From a virus: DNA of 64,000 nt. The notes below the pieces were generated by a model, which saw nothing but the letters and a program-made list of their open reading frames with translations, did not search any database and had not been told where the DNA came from. The stretch spans positions 1 through 64,000 of IMG/VR virus record IMGVR_UViG_3300007609_000005. The stretch is one strand, 5' to 3'. The position numbers and the translations under genes were made by a program. This document shows, in pieces, positions 512 to 49,360 of this stretch. Position 1 is the stretch's first letter. Each line of letters begins with the position of its first letter.

Positions 512-961
512 ATGAAAGTGAAAACAGTACTACTTGATTTTGATGGTGTTATGGTTAAAAACCAACCTTGGAAAGTTATCCAAAGAGAAAGTGATGGGTT
601 TTACAGTTTTGACAAGAGTGCATTAAAACACCTTAAGCAAATACTAAATGAAACCAGAGCAATGATAACACTGATAACAACACACAAAACCAAATATACT
701 GATGAACAATGGGAAGAGATATTTAGAAGACGAGGAATTCAATGTAGAATAAAAAAGGCAAAAGAATTCGATTCAAGAATCGATGAAGTCGAAAATTGGT
801 ATAAAACAAGACCAACCGATCAATTTGTGATATTGGATGATGATAAGTCATTGAATGACCTAAGAAGTGAAATAAAAGAAAGGTTTGTTCTGATTGAATC
901 AGGAATCGGATTAACAAAAGAAAAAACAGAATTAGCAATAAAAATATTAAACGAAAAATGA
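512..961 (+). CDS. HAD-family phosphatase (RNA-repair-associated type)
   Basis: N-terminal LLDFDGV (DxDG) and FVILDDD motifs. Confidence 0.8.
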   Translation: MKVKTVLLDFDGVMVKNQPWKVIQRESDGFYSFDKSALKHLKQILNETRAMITLITTHKTKYTDEQWEEIFRRRGIQCRIKKAKEFDSRIDEVENWYKTRPTDQFVILDDDKSLNDLRSEIKERFVLIESGIGLTKEKTELAIKILNEK

Positions 962-2526
962 ATTTTATAGAAGAAAAAATAATTAACAAAAACAGAACGG
1001 AAAATATGGTACTTCGTTTTCCACCCGAACCAAATGGACACCTACACTTGGGTCATGCAAAATCACTATGTCTAAACTTTGGACTTGCAGAGAAATATGG
1101 TGGAAAGTGCATTTTGAGGTTTGACGATACCAACCCTGCAAAAGAATCAAATGAATATGTAAATTCAATGATCGAGGATGTTGAGTGGTTGGGTTTCACG
1201 CCTGACAAGATATCATACACATCCGATTACTTTGATGAGATATACGAATGTGCCTTAACATTGATAAGTAAAGGATTAGCATATGTCGACCACTCAACTT
1301 CTGAAGAAATTGCTGAGATGAAGGGAACACCAACAACACCAGGTAAGAACTCACCATATCGTAACAATTCCATAGATGAAAACACATATCTTTTCAAAAA
1401 GATGAGAAATGGGGGATACGGTGATAAAAAAGTTGTTCTCCGTGCAAAAATTGATATGGAAAGTCCCAATATGATATTGAGAGACCCCATCCTATACCGA
1501 ATGATCAATAAACCACATCATCGAACAGGAAATTATTGGTGTATCTACCCAATGTATGATATGGCACATCCCTTATGTGATTATTTCGAAGGTATTACAG
1601 ATTCCCTTTGTACATTGGAATTTGAAGTACATAGACCATTATATAATTGGATATTGAACAATTCAGACCTCGTGGGTAACTTACCAGAGGAAACTGAGTT
1701 TTCCCGATTGAATGTCAATGGACATGTTATGAGCAAAAGGATATTCAATGGTCTGATCGATGAAAATAAAGTAGAAGGATGGAATGACCCAAGGTTATTA
1801 ACTATCAAGGGCTTGAAGAAAAGGGGATTCACACCTGAATCCATAAAGGATTTCTGTGATCGGGTGGGTGTTTCAAAACGTGAGGCATCCATTGATGTAG
1901 AATTATTGGAAGAGTGTCTTAGAATTGAATTAAACAAGTCCTCTGACCGTGTTATGGGTGTATTCGACCCGATCAAACTAACCATTTCCAATTGGGAAAG
2001 TGGTACTGAAATGGTAACCATCGAAAATAACCCCGGAGACGAAACAAAGGGTACAAGAGAAGTTCCATTCTCAGGAAATATATTCATTGAACGAGATGAT
2101 TTCAGAGAAGAAGCCAACCGAAAATACCACAGACTTAAACTTGGACACGAAGTTAGGTTAAAGGGTGCATACATAATTAAGGCAGAGTCTGTTATCAAAG
2201 ATAAAAATGGCGATGTCACTGAGGTCATATGCACATATGACCCAGAAACTCGTTCAGGGAACTGCGATAGAAAAATCAAGGGAACCATCCATTGGGTTTC
2301 AAGTGATGACTGTATAAAAATTCCTACATATTCATACGGAACCCCATTCATTGATAATGAATTCAATGAGGATTCCGAATTGATAAACAACAACTCAGTA
2401 TTTGAACCAAGAGTTCTTGAAATAGAAAATGGAGTAAGTGTTCAAATGATGAGGAAGGGTTATTATGTCAAAGATAATGATCGATTTATAAAGACTGTGG
2501 ATCTGAGATCATCATTCAAAATATAA
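958..2526 (+). CDS. glnS: glutaminyl-tRNA synthetase
   Basis: RFPPEPNGHLHLGHAKS (HIGH), LRFDDTNP, WCIYPMYD, LCTLEF, VMSKR (KMSKS equivalent), KGTIHWVS. Confidence 0.96.
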   Translation: MNFIEEKIINKNRTENMVLRFPPEPNGHLHLGHAKSLCLNFGLAEKYGGKCILRFDDTNPAKESNEYVNSMIEDVEWLGFTPDKISYTSDYFDEIYECALTLISKGLAYVDHSTSEEIAEMKGTPTTPGKNSPYRNNSIDENTYLFKKMRNGGYGDKKVVLRAKIDMESPNMILRDPILYRMINKPHHRTGNYWCIYPMYDMAHPLCDYFEGITDSLCTLEFEVHRPLYNWILNNSDLVGNLPEETEFSRLNVNGHVMSKRIFNGLIDENKVEGWNDPRLLTIKGLKKRGFTPESIKDFCDRVGVSKREASIDVELLEECLRIELNKSSDRVMGVFDPIKLTISNWESGTEMVTIENNPGDETKGTREVPFSGNIFIERDDFREEANRKYHRLKLGHEVRLKGAYIIKAESVIKDKNGDVTEVICTYDPETRSGNCDRKIKGTIHWVSSDDCIKIPTYSYGTPFIDNEFNEDSELINNNSVFEPRVLEIENGVSVQMMRKGYYVKDNDRFIKTVDLRSSFKI

Positions 2527-2878: not shown

Positions 2879-3583
2879 ATGAAAATAGAAGAAATAGATC
2901 TATCATATATTTTTGATTATGTTTCATGGAGTAATGATTGCACTTGTGGTGATGATTATTGTCGGTGTCAAGAAATATTAGACCCAGAGATAACCAATTA
3001 TGAAAATTCTAAATTGGTCAATATCATCATATCAGATATATATAACCCAAATACACCACAAGGTCAAAGGAATAACAAATTATCAAAGATTCTGAACAAT
3101 CAAATAATAGTAGAGTATGCTATTCACCGAATTGTTAGTTTGGGAAATATTAAAAATGGGGATGATGATTGGGATTTTAATATTGAATGGGGGTATTATG
3201 GACAAGAAATGACATCAATTAATCTTTGTCCCAGTGTTGCTCGACCACTATCCGAAAAAATTGACAAAATATTATCACTGAAAACCACTAAAGAAATAAT
3301 AGATTATTCTATGGAACTCGAATATGGAAGTTTATCCAAAGATTCAATGAGATGCAAAGATTATAAGGTCATCAAAATATCACATAGTGAATTAGACAAT
3401 AAAAGTATCAACGAAAACCACCTCAATAAAATCGAAAGAGGACTTTATTCTGATTATCCAAAAAATCTACCAAGGGGTATTGTGAAAAAGAATTCACGTG
3501 GATATGTTATCGTAGATGGCTACCATAGAATATTCGATGTCCCTAGTAACAAAGAGTTTATGGTTTATTCAATGAAATTTTAA
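2879..3583 (+). CDS. hypothetical protein with C-terminal ParB/Srx-like motif
   Basis: YVIVDGYHR motif; Cys-rich N-terminus. Confidence 0.6.
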   Translation: MKIEEIDLSYIFDYVSWSNDCTCGDDYCRCQEILDPEITNYENSKLVNIIISDIYNPNTPQGQRNNKLSKILNNQIIVEYAIHRIVSLGNIKNGDDDWDFNIEWGYYGQEMTSINLCPSVARPLSEKIDKILSLKTTKEIIDYSMELEYGSLSKDSMRCKDYKVIKISHSELDNKSINENHLNKIERGLYSDYPKNLPRGIVKKNSRGYVIVDGYHRIFDVPSNKEFMVYSMKF

Positions 3584-3963
3584 TGGATATTATCTACATC
3601 ATATTTTTCATCTATATGGTAACTGAACTGTCATCGGTTTTCATATTAAACACAACATGGTACGAAAAATTTAAATTCATGGCACTGTGTAAAGAATTCC
3701 TAGATGAAAATTTGGATCAGGTATTCACATATAAACTCAATTTTCTTTTCGTTGAATCTAATGGCATATTTGGAACACATTATCAAAATGAACTGAGTAT
3801 TCACCTCAAAGGACATGAACCACTCTATATTACTATAGTTGTAGAAGATGGACAAGTAAATAATAAAAAAAAGATATTGGATTCCATAAAAGAACATTTC
3901 AACAAATCAAAAATAATTAAAGAGAATAGAAATATCACATTAAAAAACATATTAAATGATTGA
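3583..3963 (+). CDS. hypothetical membrane-anchored protein (C-tag)
   Basis: Hydrophobic N-terminus; ends RNITLKNILND. Confidence 0.65.
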   Translation: MDIIYIIFFIYMVTELSSVFILNTTWYEKFKFMALCKEFLDENLDQVFTYKLNFLFVESNGIFGTHYQNELSIHLKGHEPLYITIVVEDGQVNNKKKILDSIKEHFNKSKIIKENRNITLKNILND

Positions 3964-14807: not shown

Positions 14808-15683
14808 CTATTTATTCATCGTGGCCAAAAATTCACTATTATCCTTGGTATTGACCATCCTATCAAGGATAAATTCTATTGACTCAATTGGTGTCATATC
14901 ACATAAATGATTTCTTAAAATATTCAGTTTTGGTAACACCATATCACTATGTAATAGATCATCCCTACGTGTTCCTGAGGAAGAGATATCTATGGCAGGG
15001 AATATCCTCTTATTCGAAATTGACCTATCCAATTTAACTTCTTGATTACCGGTTCCCTTAAATTCTTCAAATATGACCTCATCCATCTTTGAACCGGTAT
15101 CAACAAGTGCAGTGGCAATTATTGTCAATGAACCACCACCTTCAATATTCCTTGCTGAACCAAAGAATTTTTTAGGCTTATGCAATGAACCCACACCTAT
15201 ACCACCCGAAAGAGTTCTTCCAGAACCAGGCTCTACCTCATTATATGCCCTTGCTAAGCGAGTTATAGAATCCATGAGAATAACTACATCCTCACCATCC
15301 TCTACCATCTTCCTTGATTTATTCAAGACATAATTAGCAGATTTTATATGATCATGTGCCCTTCTATCAAAAGTTGAATACACCACTTCTGCATCTGGAA
15401 CACTCCTTGTTATATCAGTTACCTCCTCAGGTCTCTCATCAATCAACAAGAATATCACTTTTACTCCTTTATGATTTTTTATTATTGACCGTGCCACTGA
15501 TTTGAGTATTGTAGTCTTACCTGTTTTTGGTTGAGCCACTATAAGTGATCTCTGACCCTTTCCTATTGGTGCAAACATATCAATAACACGACATGTCATA
15601 TCTTGATCCAAATTAAATTTCTCATCTGGGAATACTGGAGTTAATTTGTTAAATTTTTTACTTTTCATTTCGTTCTTTTTCAT
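14808..15683 (-). CDS. rho: transcription termination factor Rho, ATPase domain only
   Basis: [72 protein letters not shown]; 291 aa with no N-terminal RNA-binding domain. Confidence 0.93.
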
Positions 15684-16266
15684 TTCTTTCTTTTATTTTT
15701 TTGATTATTGCCTTACCCCTCTGTCGGATAGATTTATACTTTATCTTAAATGATGTACTTTCCATCCCACCGAACATTTCACTATTTGAATGTATTTCGG
15801 CAAGACCCGTTAATAACAAAGTCAAGGAGTATGGATTCTTACTGAACTCTTCCACACCATCTGCCTTCAACAGATGAATATCCATATCGTGTAAAATAAG
15901 TTGGGCTGCATTTGGATTATCGAATATCCTATTGAAGTATTCATAAGACACTTCTGCGTGATGGGCGAAGTGCCTTCTTCCATCATTATCTATTTCCAAA
16001 CAAAAAGGCTTACCAATATCGTGGTATGTGGTATATAGCCGTAGAGTTTCATCATTTGGTAATGATGATAAGAACAGTTCTTTATTCCCCATCAACCATT
16101 CCGGCAACTTCCATTCATATTTCAATGGAATACCATCACGTAAATGGTCAATAAGGTCGAACAAGTGATCTCTTACTGATTCACCGTGTTCAAGAACAGA
16201 CATTCCTTGAGTCTGCTCACATTCCTTCATTTTTTGAAGGATCTCTTCTTTTGTAATCTATTTCAT
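15658..16266 (-). CDS. HD-domain phosphohydrolase; probable true start ATG AAA TAG at 16266 (in-frame amber), otherwise 16230
   Basis: [28 protein letters not shown] motifs; upstream in-frame [11 protein letters not shown]. Confidence 0.8.
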
Positions 16267-16587
16267 ATCGGTTATTATTTTTTCTAATTTAACTTTACGG
16301 GTTTCTTTTTTCACATCGATAACCTCTTCCTCGATGATAGTTCTTCTCATTATGCGTCCATCCAACTTTACAACATATCCGTTCCCATACCACCTGAAGA
16401 ATTTATCCCATTTTTCACTGTAGTCATCTGATGGTCCAATAGTATTATTACCCAACAACTGTGTGGCAAACTTCTGAAATTCAATAAGGTCTTCAATGTT
16501 ATCACTCAAATACTCCTCTTTGGAGTGTCCTATGCCTTCATACCCATACCAACTGAACTTTGAAAAATATTCTATTCTTGTTTTCAT
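16258..16587 (-). CDS. hypothetical protein (C-tag)
   Basis: Ends [16 protein letters not shown], in frame with the downstream HD gene. Confidence 0.65.
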   Translation of the reverse strand: MKTRIEYFSKFSWYGYEGIGHSKEEYLSDNIEDLIEFQKFATQLLGNNTIGPSDDYSEKWDKFFRWYGNGYVVKLDGRIMRRTIIEEEVIDVKKETRKVKLEKIITDMK

Positions 16588-16600
16588 TCTCCTAATTCTT

Positions 16601-17005
16601 TTACTCAGTTAATATTTTATTCAATTTGTTTATCCGGTCATACTTTTTATAATCACATGTTGTATATTTTCCATCACCAGACACACTATCAATTACTTTC
16701 AAATATATTGGATCAGATATTTCTTGGTCTGCATCAACCGAATAACCGGTAAAATTTCCTTCTATCACTTGATACCCATAAATACCACCTTCAAAAAAAT
16801 CATAGGATTCTTTCAATTTTTTGGAATCTTTTACGGATTTCTTAACCAAAGTCAAAAGACCACATAATGTTTCAAAAAAGTATTCTTGATTCTCTAAACT
16901 ATCACCGTGTACTTTGGCATCTGTTTTATTAGAACTCATTGTCCAAAAAGTATCACACTTGTAATATCGCCTTCCATTTGTTTCTATAAAATATACTACT
17001 TTCAT
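16601..17005 (-). CDS. hypothetical protein (C-tag)
   Basis: Ends RINKLNKILTE. Confidence 0.65.
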   Translation of the reverse strand: MKVVYFIETNGRRYYKCDTFWTMSSNKTDAKVHGDSLENQEYFFETLCGLLTLVKKSVKDSKKLKESYDFFEGGIYGYQVIEGNFTGYSVDADQEISDPIYLKVIDSVSGDGKYTTCDYKKYDRINKLNKILTE

Positions 17006-17364
17006 ACTACTGGCTCTTTTTTTGGTTTCAATAATGGTAAGTGTGAAAGTTTTCTACGAACTTCCGGAGTACCCAATAAACAAATAGAAGTACATTCATC
17101 AACATCTGGCTCAAAGAACTTGATGATAGGTGTTATTTCTGAAAATTTATTATATAGGTTCTCTAATTCTTGTTCTGACTTACACCCAAGACATATAACT
17201 GAGTTTGATGTCTTTTTCCAATGGTTGAATTCATTAGGGAATTCGTAAGCAAAGTCTGCCACAGAATGAACAGTCTGTGGAACTGTATACCCAAAGTTTT
17301 TAAAGTCATTTCGGGTAATCATGACTAATTTAGTTTCGTTAAATTTTGAAGTAATCTATTTCAT
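17002..17364 (-). CDS. Pth2-like peptidyl-tRNA hydrolase; probable true start ATG AAA TAG at 17364 (in-frame amber)
   Basis: KLVMITRNDF..GY..PQTVH, W...SNSVICL, FFEPD...TSICL, KLSHLPLL match the Pth2 pattern; KLV lies upstream of the ORF-track Met at 17322. Confidence 0.75.
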
Positions 17365-17410
17365 CTCTTTTCTTATTTTTATGGTTTATATATTAATTTA
17401 CTCTTCTCTG

Positions 17411-17497
17411 TGCGGGGAGGGGGACTCGAACCCCGTGACACCGGGTTAGAATCCGGTCAACGTCTGGCCAATAAAATCTTATTAAGTCTCAACCCGC
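17411..17497 (-). tRNA. atypical tRNA-like RNA, anticodon loop AUUCUAAC (CUA/UCUA, amber-suppressor-like)
   Basis: GCGGG/CCCGC acceptor ends, T-arm GGGG-TTCGAGT-CCCC, anticodon stem ACCGG/CCGGT with 8-nt loop, enlarged D region; own TAnnTTTG box at 17516-17523; no encoded CCA. Confidence 0.6.
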
Positions 17498-17549
17498 ATT
17501 TTTATTTATACCTTACAAAAGTAGTAAAGTTTTTCAACTCCACCAAATT

Positions 17550-18320
17550 TTATTTATTTTTATCGTAATTAACTACGATCTTATTCTTTCTTGTATGATG
17601 CTCTCTACTTTGAAGTACATATATAATGGCTTCTTTTTCCAAACAATCACCATTTATATTATTCCAATTTTTATTTTTTTGTTTAATAAGCCTTTCTGTT
17701 GACATCTTCTTATAACGAACAACATATTCCAAAAAAAATTTTCGATCTGTTGGATTTTTAGGAATTTCAATTTGTGGACGAACTTTACGTGGTTCTATAT
17801 CACTTCCAGAAACAAAACGATGTTCGGCATCATCTTGCATCTTAACAGTGTATTTAACCACACCCTCCTTGTTCTTACCCCCAACAAATGTAATTTTTCC
17901 CGGCATCTTACCAAACCAAACCGAATCACCTTTTTTGAAAGAATTCTGCTTATCCAATAGATATTGCTTCTCGGTTCTTAAATTATTTTCATATTCACGG
18001 TTTTTTCGCAATTTTTCCAACTTCTCCCTCTGCTCATCAGAGTAAATAAGATTCTCGACACTATCAGAGGCATCATCATCAAAAAGACTTTCAATGACAA
18101 CATTCCTATTTACTGTTCTGAAATCATCCTTATTGATACTATAATTTGTTGTGTGCTCAATATCTGAACTATCCTTATACACAAAATATCCGTGGATAGT
18201 ATCACCACTAACTATTGCCATATCTATACCCTTAATCATTTTGATATCAACACCCTTAATAGTGTTGTATAAGTATTTCTCTATCGCCTTGTTTAATTCT
18301 TCTTTATTTGTCTTAGCCAT
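17550..18320 (-). CDS. hypothetical protein
   Basis: 256 aa ORF with a KOW/SH3-like FKKGDSVWF segment. Confidence 0.65.
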   Translation of the reverse strand: MAKTNKEELNKAIEKYLYNTIKGVDIKMIKGIDMAIVSGDTIHGYFVYKDSSDIEHTTNYSINKDDFRTVNRNVVIESLFDDDASDSVENLIYSDEQREKLEKLRKNREYENNLRTEKQYLLDKQNSFKKGDSVWFGKMPGKITFVGGKNKEGVVKYTVKMQDDAEHRFVSGSDIEPRKVRPQIEIPKNPTDRKFFLEYVVRYKKMSTERLIKQKNKNWNNINGDCLEKEAIIYVLQSREHHTRKNKIVVNYDKNK

Positions 18321-18353: not shown

Positions 18354-18430
18354 TGGTGGGCCCAGCAGGGTTCGAACCTGCGACCTACGCTTTATGAGAA
18401 CGGTGCTCTAACCAACTGAGCTATGGGCCC
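18354..18430 (-). tRNA. tRNA with CAT anticodon (Ile2-like or Met)
   Basis: GGGCCCATAGCTCAGTTGGTTAGAGCA...CTCATAA...GGTTCGAACCC...GGGCCCACCA; canonical cloverleaf with encoded CCA. Confidence 0.92.
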
Positions 18431-18506: not shown

Positions 18507-18983
18507 ATGAAATATATTAAAAAATATAACGAATCCACAGACAATTCAGATGAAGAATCTCTACTGAAGAGATTTGACGAACCCGTTAAAAAACTATATT
18601 ACAAACTATGTGAAGTTGATGAACTTAAGGATATTTTAACAGGTCGTGGATTGGTAAATATTCTCAGAGTGGTACAACATGAGATGGATGAGATGGATGG
18701 AGAACTACCAAAGGTCTATGGGACATGGTACGAAGAAACGCAAAGGAATTATATTGACCCAAATGAAACCCCAAATGATTACCCATATAGCGAACTTTAC
18801 GAAGCATTTGGACCAACACATGCACGTATATTATGGACACTACATTATGAACAAGATAGCATAATATTAGATACCGAAGAATACCACGTTCGAGAAGTTA
18901 ATGAAGAAGAACGCGCAAAATGGATAGAAGATTGTAAAAAAACATTGGAAATGATAAATAACCCACACGAATTGATATTATGA
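18507..18983 (+). CDS. hypothetical protein (N-tag)
   Basis: Starts MKYIKKYNES. Confidence 0.7.
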   Translation: MKYIKKYNESTDNSDEESLLKRFDEPVKKLYYKLCEVDELKDILTGRGLVNILRVVQHEMDEMDGELPKVYGTWYEETQRNYIDPNETPNDYPYSELYEAFGPTHARILWTLHYEQDSIILDTEEYHVREVNEEERAKWIEDCKKTLEMINNPHELIL

Positions 18984-48541: not shown

Positions 48542-49360
48542 ATGTCATTTATAAAGAAGTATAACGAACTGAATAGTGATAAATATAAATTGGCAGGAGA
48601 AGAATTAACTAAACTAGGTCACTCTGGCCGCGGGAAAAAACTTATTGAATGGGGAGAACATAAACGATATTCGGAAATATCGGAAAAGGCAGAATATGCT
48701 AGAAATATTTATTCCAAATACGGAAAATTGCGAATTTATGTGGAGGGATTTCATGACACCAGGGATAAACAACTTTGGGGAGATTTAATTCCGGATGAGT
48801 TTGATTATTTTATACATTTTTCGAATGATGTTACAGTAGAAGAGTTTGGAACTGTTGATGATGGAAATGATTCGGAGATACTACACTTCAATCTTTATAT
48901 TATTCCAACCCAAGAAATGATAGACCGACTTTTCAACGCTGATCACAAAACAACTGACAAACAACTTATAACTTTTTACAAAGACGAACTTAGCATTGAT
49001 GATTTTTCATCTTACTTCTTTTTATGCACTTTTACAATCGAATTTAAGAAAGATCTCGAAAATCAAAAATTGAATTTATCAGATATAAGTATTTGCCCGG
49101 TTGAAATGGACTTTGGTAAAATAACATTAAAAACAAAAAGGGATGCAGCCAAATTCAGAGAGCTATTGTATTCAATATTCAATAAAGACATAGACTACCC
49201 AACATATCCGAATAATACACTTTCAAAAAAACCAATGTATGATGAAATTCAAGAAACATTGGTAGAACTTGATGTACTTACGAATTACGGACTTGAAATT
49301 GAAGATATTGCAGAACAGATAAAAATATTTTCAACAAATAAATTGTATAAAGAGATATGA
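48542..49360 (+). CDS. hypothetical protein (N-tag), tandem paralog 1
   Basis: MSFIKKYNEL; similar to the next ORF (LT..GH..RG.KL, DYP, KP.Y.E..E.L.E.DVL..YGL..EDIAE). Confidence 0.75.
   Translation: MSFIKKYNELNSDKYKLAGEELTKLGHSGRGKKLIEWGEHKRYSEISEKAEYARNIYSKYGKLRIYVEGFHDTRDKQLWGDLIPDEFDYFIHFSNDVTVEEFGTVDDGNDSEILHFNLYIIPTQEMIDRLFNADHKTTDKQLITFYKDELSIDDFSSYFFLCTFTIEFKKDLENQKLNLSDISICPVEMDFGKITLKTKRDAAKFRELLYSIFNKDIDYPTYPNNTLSKKPMYDEIQETLVELDVLTNYGLEIEDIAEQIKIFSTNKLYKEI

Follow-up and report, generated by a model that had tools for sequence, protein, structure and literature searches.

Conserved early amber codons before a Pth2-like and an HD-domain gene in phages, and a candidate 8/4-type CUA tRNA that may license their expression

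Some phages recode the amber stop codon with suppressor tRNAs of their own and read TAG as Gln (code 15), as set out in the preprint of Borges et al. (10.1101/2021.08.26.457843) and in Peters et al. (PMC9523058). CUA suppressor tRNAs also occur as apparent orphans in jumbo phages of standard code: the XacN1 paper (PMC5852040) states that no target was found for its two, and the RsoM2USA paper (PMC8504454) reports a CUA tRNA and names no target. Here we analyze the first 64,000 nucleotides (the window) of the virus record IMGVR_UViG_3300007609_000005. On its minus strand, a Pth2-like gene and an HD-domain gene each begin with ATG AAA TAG ATT AC, an arrangement of short open reading frame (ORF) and in-frame TAG that we call the gate, and a tRNA-shaped gene with a CUA loop lies directly upstream. 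We consider it likely that both genes start at the ATG of this 14-mer and that the UAG is read by a suppressor tRNA(CUA), with the adjacent 8/4-type gene as candidate, so that expression is licensed by a tRNA; both enzymes would then probably be made only when the tRNA overrides the UAG. As in recoded phages, a phage CUA tRNA and an in-frame TAG are proposed to form a post-transcriptional switch. Unlike in those phages, the code here is standard, two genes only are involved, the TAG falls within the first 2–8 codons, and the predicted gated products are tRNA-end enzymes instead of late or lysis proteins; 10.1101/2021.08.26.457843 nowhere uses the word “hydrolase.” XacN1 and RsoM2USA themselves, the same phages with the same CUA tRNAs, proved to carry the gate, and the gated XacN1 ORF364 has no occurrence in the main text of PMC5852040. 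A full-text literature search, which did not cover supplementary tables, returned no description of an amber-gated Pth2/HD pair.

Two natural systems and one engineered system invite comparison. The release factor 2 (RF2) gene prfB carries an early in-frame UGA that is passed by a +1 frameshift and senses its own product. The gated genes resemble prfB in that an early in-frame stop lies in a translation-related gene whose output would be set by stop decoding, and differ in having no frameshift and a tRNA as the proposed reader. The bar minigenes of phage lambda are two-codon ORFs associated with peptidyl-tRNA drop-off and host Pth. By analogy, the Met-Lys-stop ORF described here is a likely source of drop-off placed before a putative peptidyl-tRNA hydrolase gene; unlike the bar minigenes, the short ORF shares its frame with the enzyme gene and varies in length among relatives, from 2 to 8 codons. 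In a synthetic feed-forward gate (PMC7969014), an amber-containing target and a co-regulated suppressor tRNA form an AND gate against leakiness; the present system would be a natural counterpart of that engineered design, with a putative purpose.

The window contains exactly two copies of the 14-mer ATGAAATAGATTAC, each on the minus strand and in frame with a gene. Gate 1 (17351–17364; ATG 17362–17364, TAG 17356–17358) precedes the Pth2-like gene, which spans 17002–17364 when read from this ATG through the UAG (minus strand, 120 codons plus stop); the ATG (17364) lies in frame 42 nt 5′ of the first ATG of the table-11 ORF (17322). Gate 2 (16253–16266; ATG 16264–16266, TAG 16258–16260) precedes the HD-domain gene (15658–16266, minus strand, 202 codons plus stop), and its ATG (16266) lies in frame 36 nt 5′ of the HD ORF’s ATG (16230). 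A preliminary description of this DNA had reported the repeated 14-mer, these two distances and both read-through peptides (MK*ITSKFNETKLVMITR for the Pth2-like protein), and we confirmed all of them. Identity of the 14-mer is by itself statistically unremarkable: with up to two mismatches allowed, four matches were found versus 2.56 expected, and 28 of 100 shuffled sequences reached four. The signal therefore lies in conservation across genomes. Taken alone, the window would also accommodate ordinary starts at the downstream Met codons (17322 and 16230), with ATG AAA TAG as a chance or promoter-region motif, or with the genes as pseudogenes: both genes have an in-frame ATG 12–14 codons further on, and the exact identity of the 14-mer carries no significance alone. 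The comparison with relatives makes this explanation very improbable.

Profile-guided scans of IMG/VR yielded 40 Pth2-like loci and 14 HD loci; some contigs belong to both sets, and several are near-identical duplicates. An in-frame ATG followed by one to six further codons and TAG stands directly 5′ of the conserved N-terminal peptide in 38 of the 40 Pth2-like loci (a script gave 37; L026 was added from its printed context and then confirmed), with ∼30 distinct contexts among the gated loci. The exceptions are L053, a fragment covering residues 60–109 only, and L054, which has 33% identity and TAA in front. The HD gate is present in 13 of the 14 IMG/VR loci (12 distinct; L066 is the exception), and additional HD copies within the Pth2 loci are gated too. 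Across relatives, the position of the TAG ranges from codon 2 to codon 8. As background in the same loci, we took frames of at least 100 codons and asked how often an ATG lies at most seven codons 5′ of the stop that bounds the frame on its 5′ side; this was so for 7 of 188 TAA and 9 of 74 TGA stops versus 60 of 107 TAG stops.

The peptide that follows the TAG is kept with synonymous changes (e.g., I-x-S-K-F-x-E-T-K-L-V and I-T-K-Q-E-L-I-x-K-M). Most Pth2 homologs, and L007 and L063 for HD, have no ATG, GTG, or TTG near this N-terminus, and coding must therefore begin at the codon after the TAG at the latest. These same homologs, with no start at the downstream Met and with the intervening peptide conserved, stand against ordinary initiation there, as does the intactness of the ORFs across ∼30 distinct lineages. 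The preliminary description had proposed aligning homologous loci, with homologs that start at the downstream Met and show no upstream conservation as the outcome that would speak against it. The alignment gave the opposite: the TAG is conserved in the 38 Pth2-like and 13 HD loci and in the GenBank phages described below, and many homologs lack that Met. Judged by this comparison, the gate TAG is neither an error nor a chance match.

We also considered stop–start coupling, in which the 2–8-codon ORF ends at the UAG and the ribosome re-initiates at the next codon (AUU), with no suppressor involved. In its favor, AUU can serve bacteria as a weak start codon (infC), the TAG never lacks a short ORF before it, and ATT is the commonest codon after it, in most Bacteroidota-type loci; this leaves some room for re-initiation and counts against a suppressor. 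Several lineages, however, have AAC, ACC, ATA, ATC, or GTA at this position, and such poor or nonstart codons argue against re-initiation there. The stop is always TAG, never TAA or TGA, though TAG is the rarest stop of the contig (20 of 193 ORFs). Moreover, CUA tRNAs co-occur with gated genes, and the HD genes of phages GAP32 and fHe-Yen9-03 carry their TAG internally, at about codon 46–47, after a normal ATG. We regard stop–start coupling as improbable on these grounds. The base following the gate TAG is A in nearly all loci, compared with T 9, A 6, G 3, and C 2 at the 20 ordinary TAG stops of the contig; an A after UAG is a context that favors amber suppression.

A tblastn search with the HD protein returned 29 GenBank phage records, of which nine, eight of them from cultured phages, were inspected. 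The Pth2-like part is gated in all nine, and HD has an N-terminal gate in five, an internal in-frame TAG in two, and no gate in two. In the uncultured LR745206, an ATG lies three codons before the TAG in both genes. RsoM2USA has ML#ISDK for the Pth2-like protein and MKS#ISKEEL for HD (# marks TAG). In ME3 (MT#IHEN) and Arash (ML#NKHW), the Pth2-like gene is gated and HD has a plain ATG start without TAG. GAP32 (MAQ#NEKT) and fHe-Yen9-03 (MSH#IDKT) are the two phages in which HD combines a normal start with an internal TAG (ISELDTG#GD in GAP32, and the same site in fHe-Yen9-03). The remaining three encode fusions with a single N-terminal gate: Pth2-HD in pT24 (MK#ITKN) and HD-Pth2 in XacN1 (MK#TIKA; ORF364, MK#TIKAMKL) and RAS14 (MK#TLNK). 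The gate pattern thus extends to phages in culture that infect Cronobacter, Yersinia, Salmonella, Acinetobacter, Ralstonia, Xanthomonas, Stenotrophomonas, and Tenacibaculum.

In phages whose hosts use Shine–Dalgarno sites, the short-ORF ATG follows a GAGGA- or AAGGAG-type motif at a distance of 5–8 nt, as found in seven of ten N-terminal gate contexts examined (Yen9-03, Arash, the two RsoM2USA genes, XacN1, RAS14, and L068); the motifs of GAP32 (GGGG) and ME3 (GAGA) are weak, and pT24, with a Bacteroidota host, has none. A Shine–Dalgarno motif spaced for the short-ORF ATG argues for initiation at that ATG. Initiation at the UAG itself by an initiator-like CUA tRNA was set aside, as every gated locus has an in-frame ATG before the TAG and the Shine–Dalgarno spacing fits that ATG. 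Frameshifting by +1 or −1 was rejected, the conserved protein frame being the zero frame relative to both ATG and TAG, and quadruplet (UAGA) decoding by the 8-nt loop of the tRNA-like RNA fell for the same reason. Annotation pipelines shorten or split gated genes, as in GAP32_397–399 and in Arash gp84c; the latter, annotated “peptidyl-tRNA hydrolase,” comprises 50 aa, only the 3′ part of the TAG-gated Pth2-like frame.

The gate operates, if it does, against a standard genetic code. The IMG/VR record is 132,459 bp long with 32.8% G+C, and CheckV puts its completeness at ∼52%; the phage is large and may come from soil (the run accompanying the stretch is labeled soil metagenome, a possible source sample). 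The presence of a CUA tRNA together with a glutaminyl-tRNA synthetase (GlnRS) could point to genome-wide reassignment of TAG (code 15), but we give this almost no credence. Greedy ORFs cover 92.3% of the contig under code 11 and no more, 91.5%, with TAG as sense. The stops of the 193 greedy ORFs are TAA in 106, TGA in 67, and TAG in 20, so the contig fits code 11 with TAG as the ordinary stop of ∼20 ORFs. Within these 132 kb, the Pth2-like and HD genes are the only ones in which a long frame opens at a TAG-ATT with an ATG up to eight codons before it, and we saw no convincing case of a gene split by an internal TAG. In the 6- to 8-kb loci of relatives, local code tests gave a gain of only a few percent, as expected from regaining both genes. 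The preliminary description had read the rest of the window in code 11 and had noted a phage GlnRS; both observations hold, the latter as a full-length glnS-type glutamine-tRNA ligase gene at 958–2526 (plus strand; TIGR00440, 612 bits). It had also argued that the amber switch is local, specific to these genes and linked to a CUA tRNA, and not a case of genome-wide recoding, and the comparative conservation of the TAG supports that view.

The tRNA-like gene belongs to a shape that has precedent. tRNAs with an 8/4 acceptor branch have been found in phages, work in Escherichia coli translation, and can be nonsense suppressors, and a phage 8/4 tRNAHis has A73 and no G-1 (Mukai et al., PMC5389517). 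The gene in the window occupies 17411–17497 (minus strand, 87 nt), with an 8-bp acceptor stem, a 4-bp T stem, the linker ACTTAAT, the anticodon stem ACCGG/CCGGT, and an 8-nt loop, AUUCUAAC, that contains CUA. It drew no ARAGORN call at default settings and no match to Rfam RF00005 at E ≤ 10; relaxed ARAGORN on 17301–17650 gave only forced intron-bearing models, which we discarded. The RNA thus escapes general-model detection and has neither the 7/5 branch nor the 7-nt loop of canonical tRNAs. A TACTTTTG box of TAnnTTTG type (17516–17523, minus strand) lies 18 nt 5′ of its 5′ end and is a candidate for the gene’s own promoter. The window and 11 of 17 relatives have such a box 18–28 nt 5′ of the tRNA-like gene; in the background, 66 of 2,313 stretches of 45 nt contain one. 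The Bacteroidota -7 promoter consensus resembles this type.

We aligned 14 sequences missed by ARAGORN and Rfam on a common fold. The fold comprises an 8-bp acceptor stem, a single-stranded linker of 7–9 nt (A-ACTTAAT or GTTTAAA), a D-like hairpin (5- to 6-bp stem, 4- to 7-nt loop), an anticodon stem whose closing pair (31–39) is often mismatched, a CUA loop, a variable region of 4–5 nt, and a 4-bp T stem with a UUCGA-type loop. Compensatory changes were found in 13 of the 17 pairs; in the acceptor stem 7 of 8 pairs, and in the T stem 2 of 4, have changes on both sides. Paired cells amount to 95.8% versus 72.4% in shuffles, and the covariation score is 0.760 versus 0.278, a value reached by none of 500 shuffles; slid partners scored 0.10–0.17. 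The family thus has the 8-bp acceptor and 4-bp T stem of the 8/4 class with covariation behind them, and the long variable arm and tRNASec-like D arm of allo-tRNAs are absent. With the tRNAs of PMC5389517, it shares the 12-bp acceptor branch split 8/4. It differs from them in its 4- to 5-nt variable region (allo-tRNAs have a long V-arm), the 7- to 9-nt ACTTAAT linker, the CUA anticodon, the often mismatched 31–39 pair, and, in the window copy, the 8-nt loop. A covariance model (R1) scores at least 58 bits in 24 loci and the window, ∼18 distinct contigs, including the nonseed members L042, L051, L064, and L017 at 58–61 bits; ordinary CUA tRNAs score 24–44 bits. The claim that a tRNA-shaped RNA with a CUA loop and a TAnnTTTG box lies directly upstream is thereby borne out by the sequence and by the family model.

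Whether the window copy itself reads the UAG is a separate matter. Its CUA triplet, conserved fold, and linkage to TAG-bearing genes make it a candidate for a working amber suppressor. Its R1 score is 60.6 bits, but it is itself a seed sequence. Several features count against this role and indicate that the copy could be weak or inactive. Acceptor pairs 6 and 7 are U.C and U.U (two further members also have U.U at pair 7), the D region contains 6 inserted nucleotides, and the 8-nt loop is 1 nt shorter than the family’s; folded alone, its minimum free energy structure is not a cloverleaf (z = −1.61). Beyond the window copy, a tRNA-like match is absent in 24 of 60 sources, from each of which a few kilobases and not the whole contig were fetched. 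fHe-Yen9-03 shows no CUA tRNA among its best model hits, and none of the 14 tRNAs in the fetched stretch of RsoM2USA has a CUA anticodon, though the RsoM2USA paper reports one. With ∼52% of the genome in the contig, another CUA tRNA may also sit in the missing half.

These departures in anticodon loop, D region, and acceptor stem, the incomplete contig, and the ordinary 7/5 CUA tRNAs of many relatives would fit a real gate whose neighboring tRNA-like gene is decayed or serves some other function, the UAG being decoded by a canonical CUA tRNA from the part of the genome outside the contig, by a co-infecting phage’s suppressor, or by near-cognate read-through where release factor 1 is limiting. 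Against this alternative, the nearest look-alike, L016, has the same shortened YCUAAC loop and differs from the window copy by compensatory changes in the acceptor and anticodon stems, which suggests continued selection; the window copy also keeps the promoter box and its place directly 5′ of the Pth2-like gene. We hold this alternative to be unlikely, and the adjacent gene is still our preferred candidate for the reader of the gate.

Ordinary CUA tRNAs were called by ARAGORN in 9 of the 54 fetched loci (8 contigs), often adjoining gated genes. CUA tRNAs are annotated in GAP32 and ME3 and were detected in XacN1, RAS14, and pT24. In Arash, a tRNA annotated as tRNA-Phe (L074:2479–2550; Arash 49176–49247) has the loop CUCUAAA, that is CUA, and lies ∼0.5 kb 3′ of the HD gene. 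Of the two XacN1 CUA tRNAs (L090, 36047–36202), which have the same D, anticodon, and T arms, one has A and the other G as discriminator, and their acceptor stems also differ; charging might not be the same for both. In L032 (2699–2765), L040, L044, and L049, an RNA of ∼65 nt with the loop CUCUAAA or UUCUAAA lies ∼270 nt 5′ of the Pth2 gate. It has a normal T arm, a 7-bp acceptor stem, and no recognizable D arm, scores 21 bits with R1, and may be a third shape of CUA tRNA.

The amino acid inserted at the UAG is not named by comparison with paralogs, since the nearest paralogous tRNAs (of XacN1, RAS14, pT24, L066, and L068) reach identities of only 0.57–0.74, to Lys, Ile, Thr, or Arg tRNAs. The preliminary description had suggested Gln as a possibility, given the phage GlnRS; in general, CUA tRNAs are prone to charging by GlnRS. 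His is a lead from a different direction. Eleven ORFs have a strict MKHLKKFNE-type N-terminus (in the window at 18507, 47813, 48207, 48542, and 62708, and in the contig at 64909–73390), most of them behind a TAATATATA string. The gated N-terminus MK#ITSKFNE resembles this type, with TAG at the His/Tyr position and one residue out of register; the likeness, together with the A73 of the 8/4 phage tRNAHis, suggests His by analogy and as a lead only.

The two gated proteins appear to be tRNA enzymes, with different degrees of support. The Pth2-like protein of the window scores 21.3 bits with Pfam PTH2 (PF01981), below the cut-off of 23, and 16.6 with TIGR00283 (cut-off 82); its model is of low confidence (predicted local distance difference test, pLDDT, 62.3); and the HD protein likewise falls short of its Pfam cut-off (HD, PF01966; 21 bits versus 22). 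These values weigh against the assignments. For the Pth2-like family, homologs lie above the Pfam cut-off (the pT24 fusion at 32 bits and XacN1 ORF364 at 25.3 bits), and the three best PDB hits of the family profile are all Pth2 (2zv3, 5.8e-4; 24bt, 3.9e-3; 1wn2, 7.3e-3). Foldseek with the low-confidence model gave nothing at E ≤ 0.001; Pth2 entries took ranks 2, 10, 15, and 32 (E 0.06–1.3). At the level of sequence profiles, the similarity to solved Pth2 proteins is weak but specific, and the product is predicted to be a peptidyl/aminoacyl-tRNA hydrolase.

The HD protein matches phrog_14850 (8.7e-62), and H79-D80 and several other His and Asp residues are invariant in 7 of 7 aligned homologs. 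Its model is confident (pLDDT 93.3), and the top 11 Foldseek rows are all Aquifex tRNA nucleotidyltransferase (3wfo–3wfs, best 3wfo, 3wfr, and 3wfq; probability 1.00, template modeling score 0.53–0.58, E 7.8e-3 to 4.9e-2); the sequence profile finds 3wfp at 0.004. The likeness is to the C-terminal tRNA-binding, HD-like half of class II CCA/A-adding enzymes, within which all ∼200 residues match, and the N-terminal nucleotidyltransferase head domain is absent. Without a head domain, the HD protein is not a CCA-adding enzyme.

The profile matches and the HD model also bear on the gate. Both the Pfam PTH2 match and the alignment with Methanocaldococcus jannaschii Pth2 begin at KLV, upstream of the table-11 Met, as expected from the earlier claim that read-through restores the KLV strand, and residues 3–12 of the HD model, 5′ of its table-11 Met, form a confident helix; the region before the table-11 Met therefore belongs to both proteins. 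Fusions of Pth2 and HD, in both orders, occur in several lineages, and the two have phrog_14850 in common, which argues for a joint function. We infer from domain content that the pair may act together on tRNA 3′ ends, by removal of peptidyl or aminoacyl groups and of phosphate.

The comparisons establish a gate conserved across related phages, a protein frame that crosses the TAG, and CUA tRNAs in or near many loci; actual read-through, its performance by the window’s tRNA copy, the substrates of the enzymes, and the purpose of the gate are what we infer from them. A ribosome would start at the ATG of the 14-mer and meet UAG as the third codon, which would need an amber-suppressor tRNA(CUA); the candidate reader is the 8/4-type gene at 17411–17497, directly upstream with its own promoter box. 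Failing suppression, Met-Lys would be released and no enzyme made, and with suppression, the full-length Pth2-like hydrolase and the HD phosphohydrolase resembling the C-terminal half of CCA enzymes would be produced. The tRNA would act as a translational license, an AND gate or timer, for a pair of tRNA 3′-end enzymes in a genome where TAG is otherwise a stop. The purpose could be control without leakage, as an AND gate or timer coupled to phage tRNA expression; feedback of either sign, should the suppressor itself be a substrate of the enzymes; or peptidyl-tRNA clean-up scaled to the amount of stop-codon read-through. The preliminary description had proposed, as a possible design, feedback through the Met-Lys minigene stop as a source of peptidyl-tRNA drop-off. 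In L054 (5344–5766), a 138-aa gene of the RF-1/GGQ domain (ArfB-like; PF00472, 2.4e-16) starts ATG TAG AAC. An early amber codon is thus present in another type of peptidyl-tRNA hydrolase as well, which fits the clean-up option; tblastn with this protein found mainly mycobacteriophage genes annotated as uninterrupted.

A further-reaching version, which is speculative and has a minor share of our belief, makes the 8/4 tRNA with its enlarged loop a dedicated regulator. It would not be a general suppressor but would be tuned to UAG-A at codons 2–8, and the Pth2-like deacylase and the CCA-enzyme-like HD phosphoesterase, as a 3′-end “reset” pair, would act on the suppressor and on the cell’s tRNA pool. 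The result would be a closed feedback loop controlling how much UAG read-through occurs; this loop would be what orphan suppressor tRNAs originally served in standard-code jumbo phages, and full TAG recoding would have it as its seed.

The gated Pth2-like/HD pair, adjacent or fused in many lineages, offers concrete targets for CUA suppressor tRNAs, and the gate may explain the “orphan” suppressor tRNAs of normal-code phages. If the tRNA-licensed reading is true, this is a natural example of tRNA-licensed gene expression, and the gate could be an intermediate toward stop-codon reassignment. The locus also points to an 8/4 tRNA family overlooked by standard tRNA finders, and the gate is directly testable with reporters and proteomics in cultured phages.

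On the minus strand, the locus runs from the TACTTTTG box through the 87-nt tRNA-shaped gene and the TAATATATA string to gate 1 with the Pth2-like ORF, then two small ORFs, gate 2 with the HD ORF, and a Rho-like ATPase gene. The TAATATATA motif (17387–17395, minus strand), ∼22 nt 5′ of the ATG of the Pth2 short ORF, is a candidate phage promoter; ATATATAA-like strings precede the short ORFs of relatives and the MKHLKKFNE-type genes of the contig. The first small ORF (16601–17005, minus strand, 134 aa), between the gated genes, has no Pfam or PHROG match and lies outside the conserved pair, several relatives having Pth2 and HD adjacent or fused. The second (16258–16587, minus strand, 109 aa) has no family match and, as the preliminary description observed, stops at the gating TAG of the HD gene (16258–16260). 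Fusion of this ORF to HD by read-through, also suggested there, is possible, but in most relatives the TAG is preceded by no more than a 2- to 8-codon ORF, so such a fusion is not what has been conserved. The Rho homolog (14808–15683, minus strand; NF006886, 1.8e-136) matches model positions 127–413 only and is without the N-terminal RNA-binding part. Its 3′ end, ATG AAT AAA TAG ATT, does have the gate-like context that had been pointed out, but the likeness looks incidental: read-through adds four codons (ILIL) before TGA, and the next gene is in a different frame. The only canonical tRNA called by ARAGORN in the whole 132 kb is a tRNA-Met (18354–18430). Beyond the window, at 71684–73414 of the contig (minus strand), a 460-aa ORF (72008–73390) ends in TAG with its frame open for 108 codons more, which could be read-through or chance.

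Four relatives (L021:2854–2960, L022:2823–2975, L027:2838–2960, and L045:2856–2960) lack the tRNA-like gene and instead carry, immediately 5′ of the Pth2 gate, a short leader that starts ATG ATG TAG ATT. When read through, the leader ends …(R/K)PP-TAA in three of the four. A long hairpin includes this stop in its ACCUCCUUAA arm; the opposite arm is GGAGG-like, with a run of U after it, and the structure may be an attenuator that senses amber read-through. In L052, an 82-aa ORF with no Pfam match (3336–3593), directly 3′ of the Pth2-like gene, starts ATG AAA TAG ATA and is a further gated gene. Finally, in L031 (2024–2968), L017 (2035–2994), and L049 (from 2026), a gene of 311–322 aa for a zinc-ribbon/DUF723 endonuclease-like protein lies between the 8/4 tRNA and the Pth2 gate and itself starts ATG (ATG) TAG ATT/GTT, as though the gate had been copied or captured by a mobile gene.

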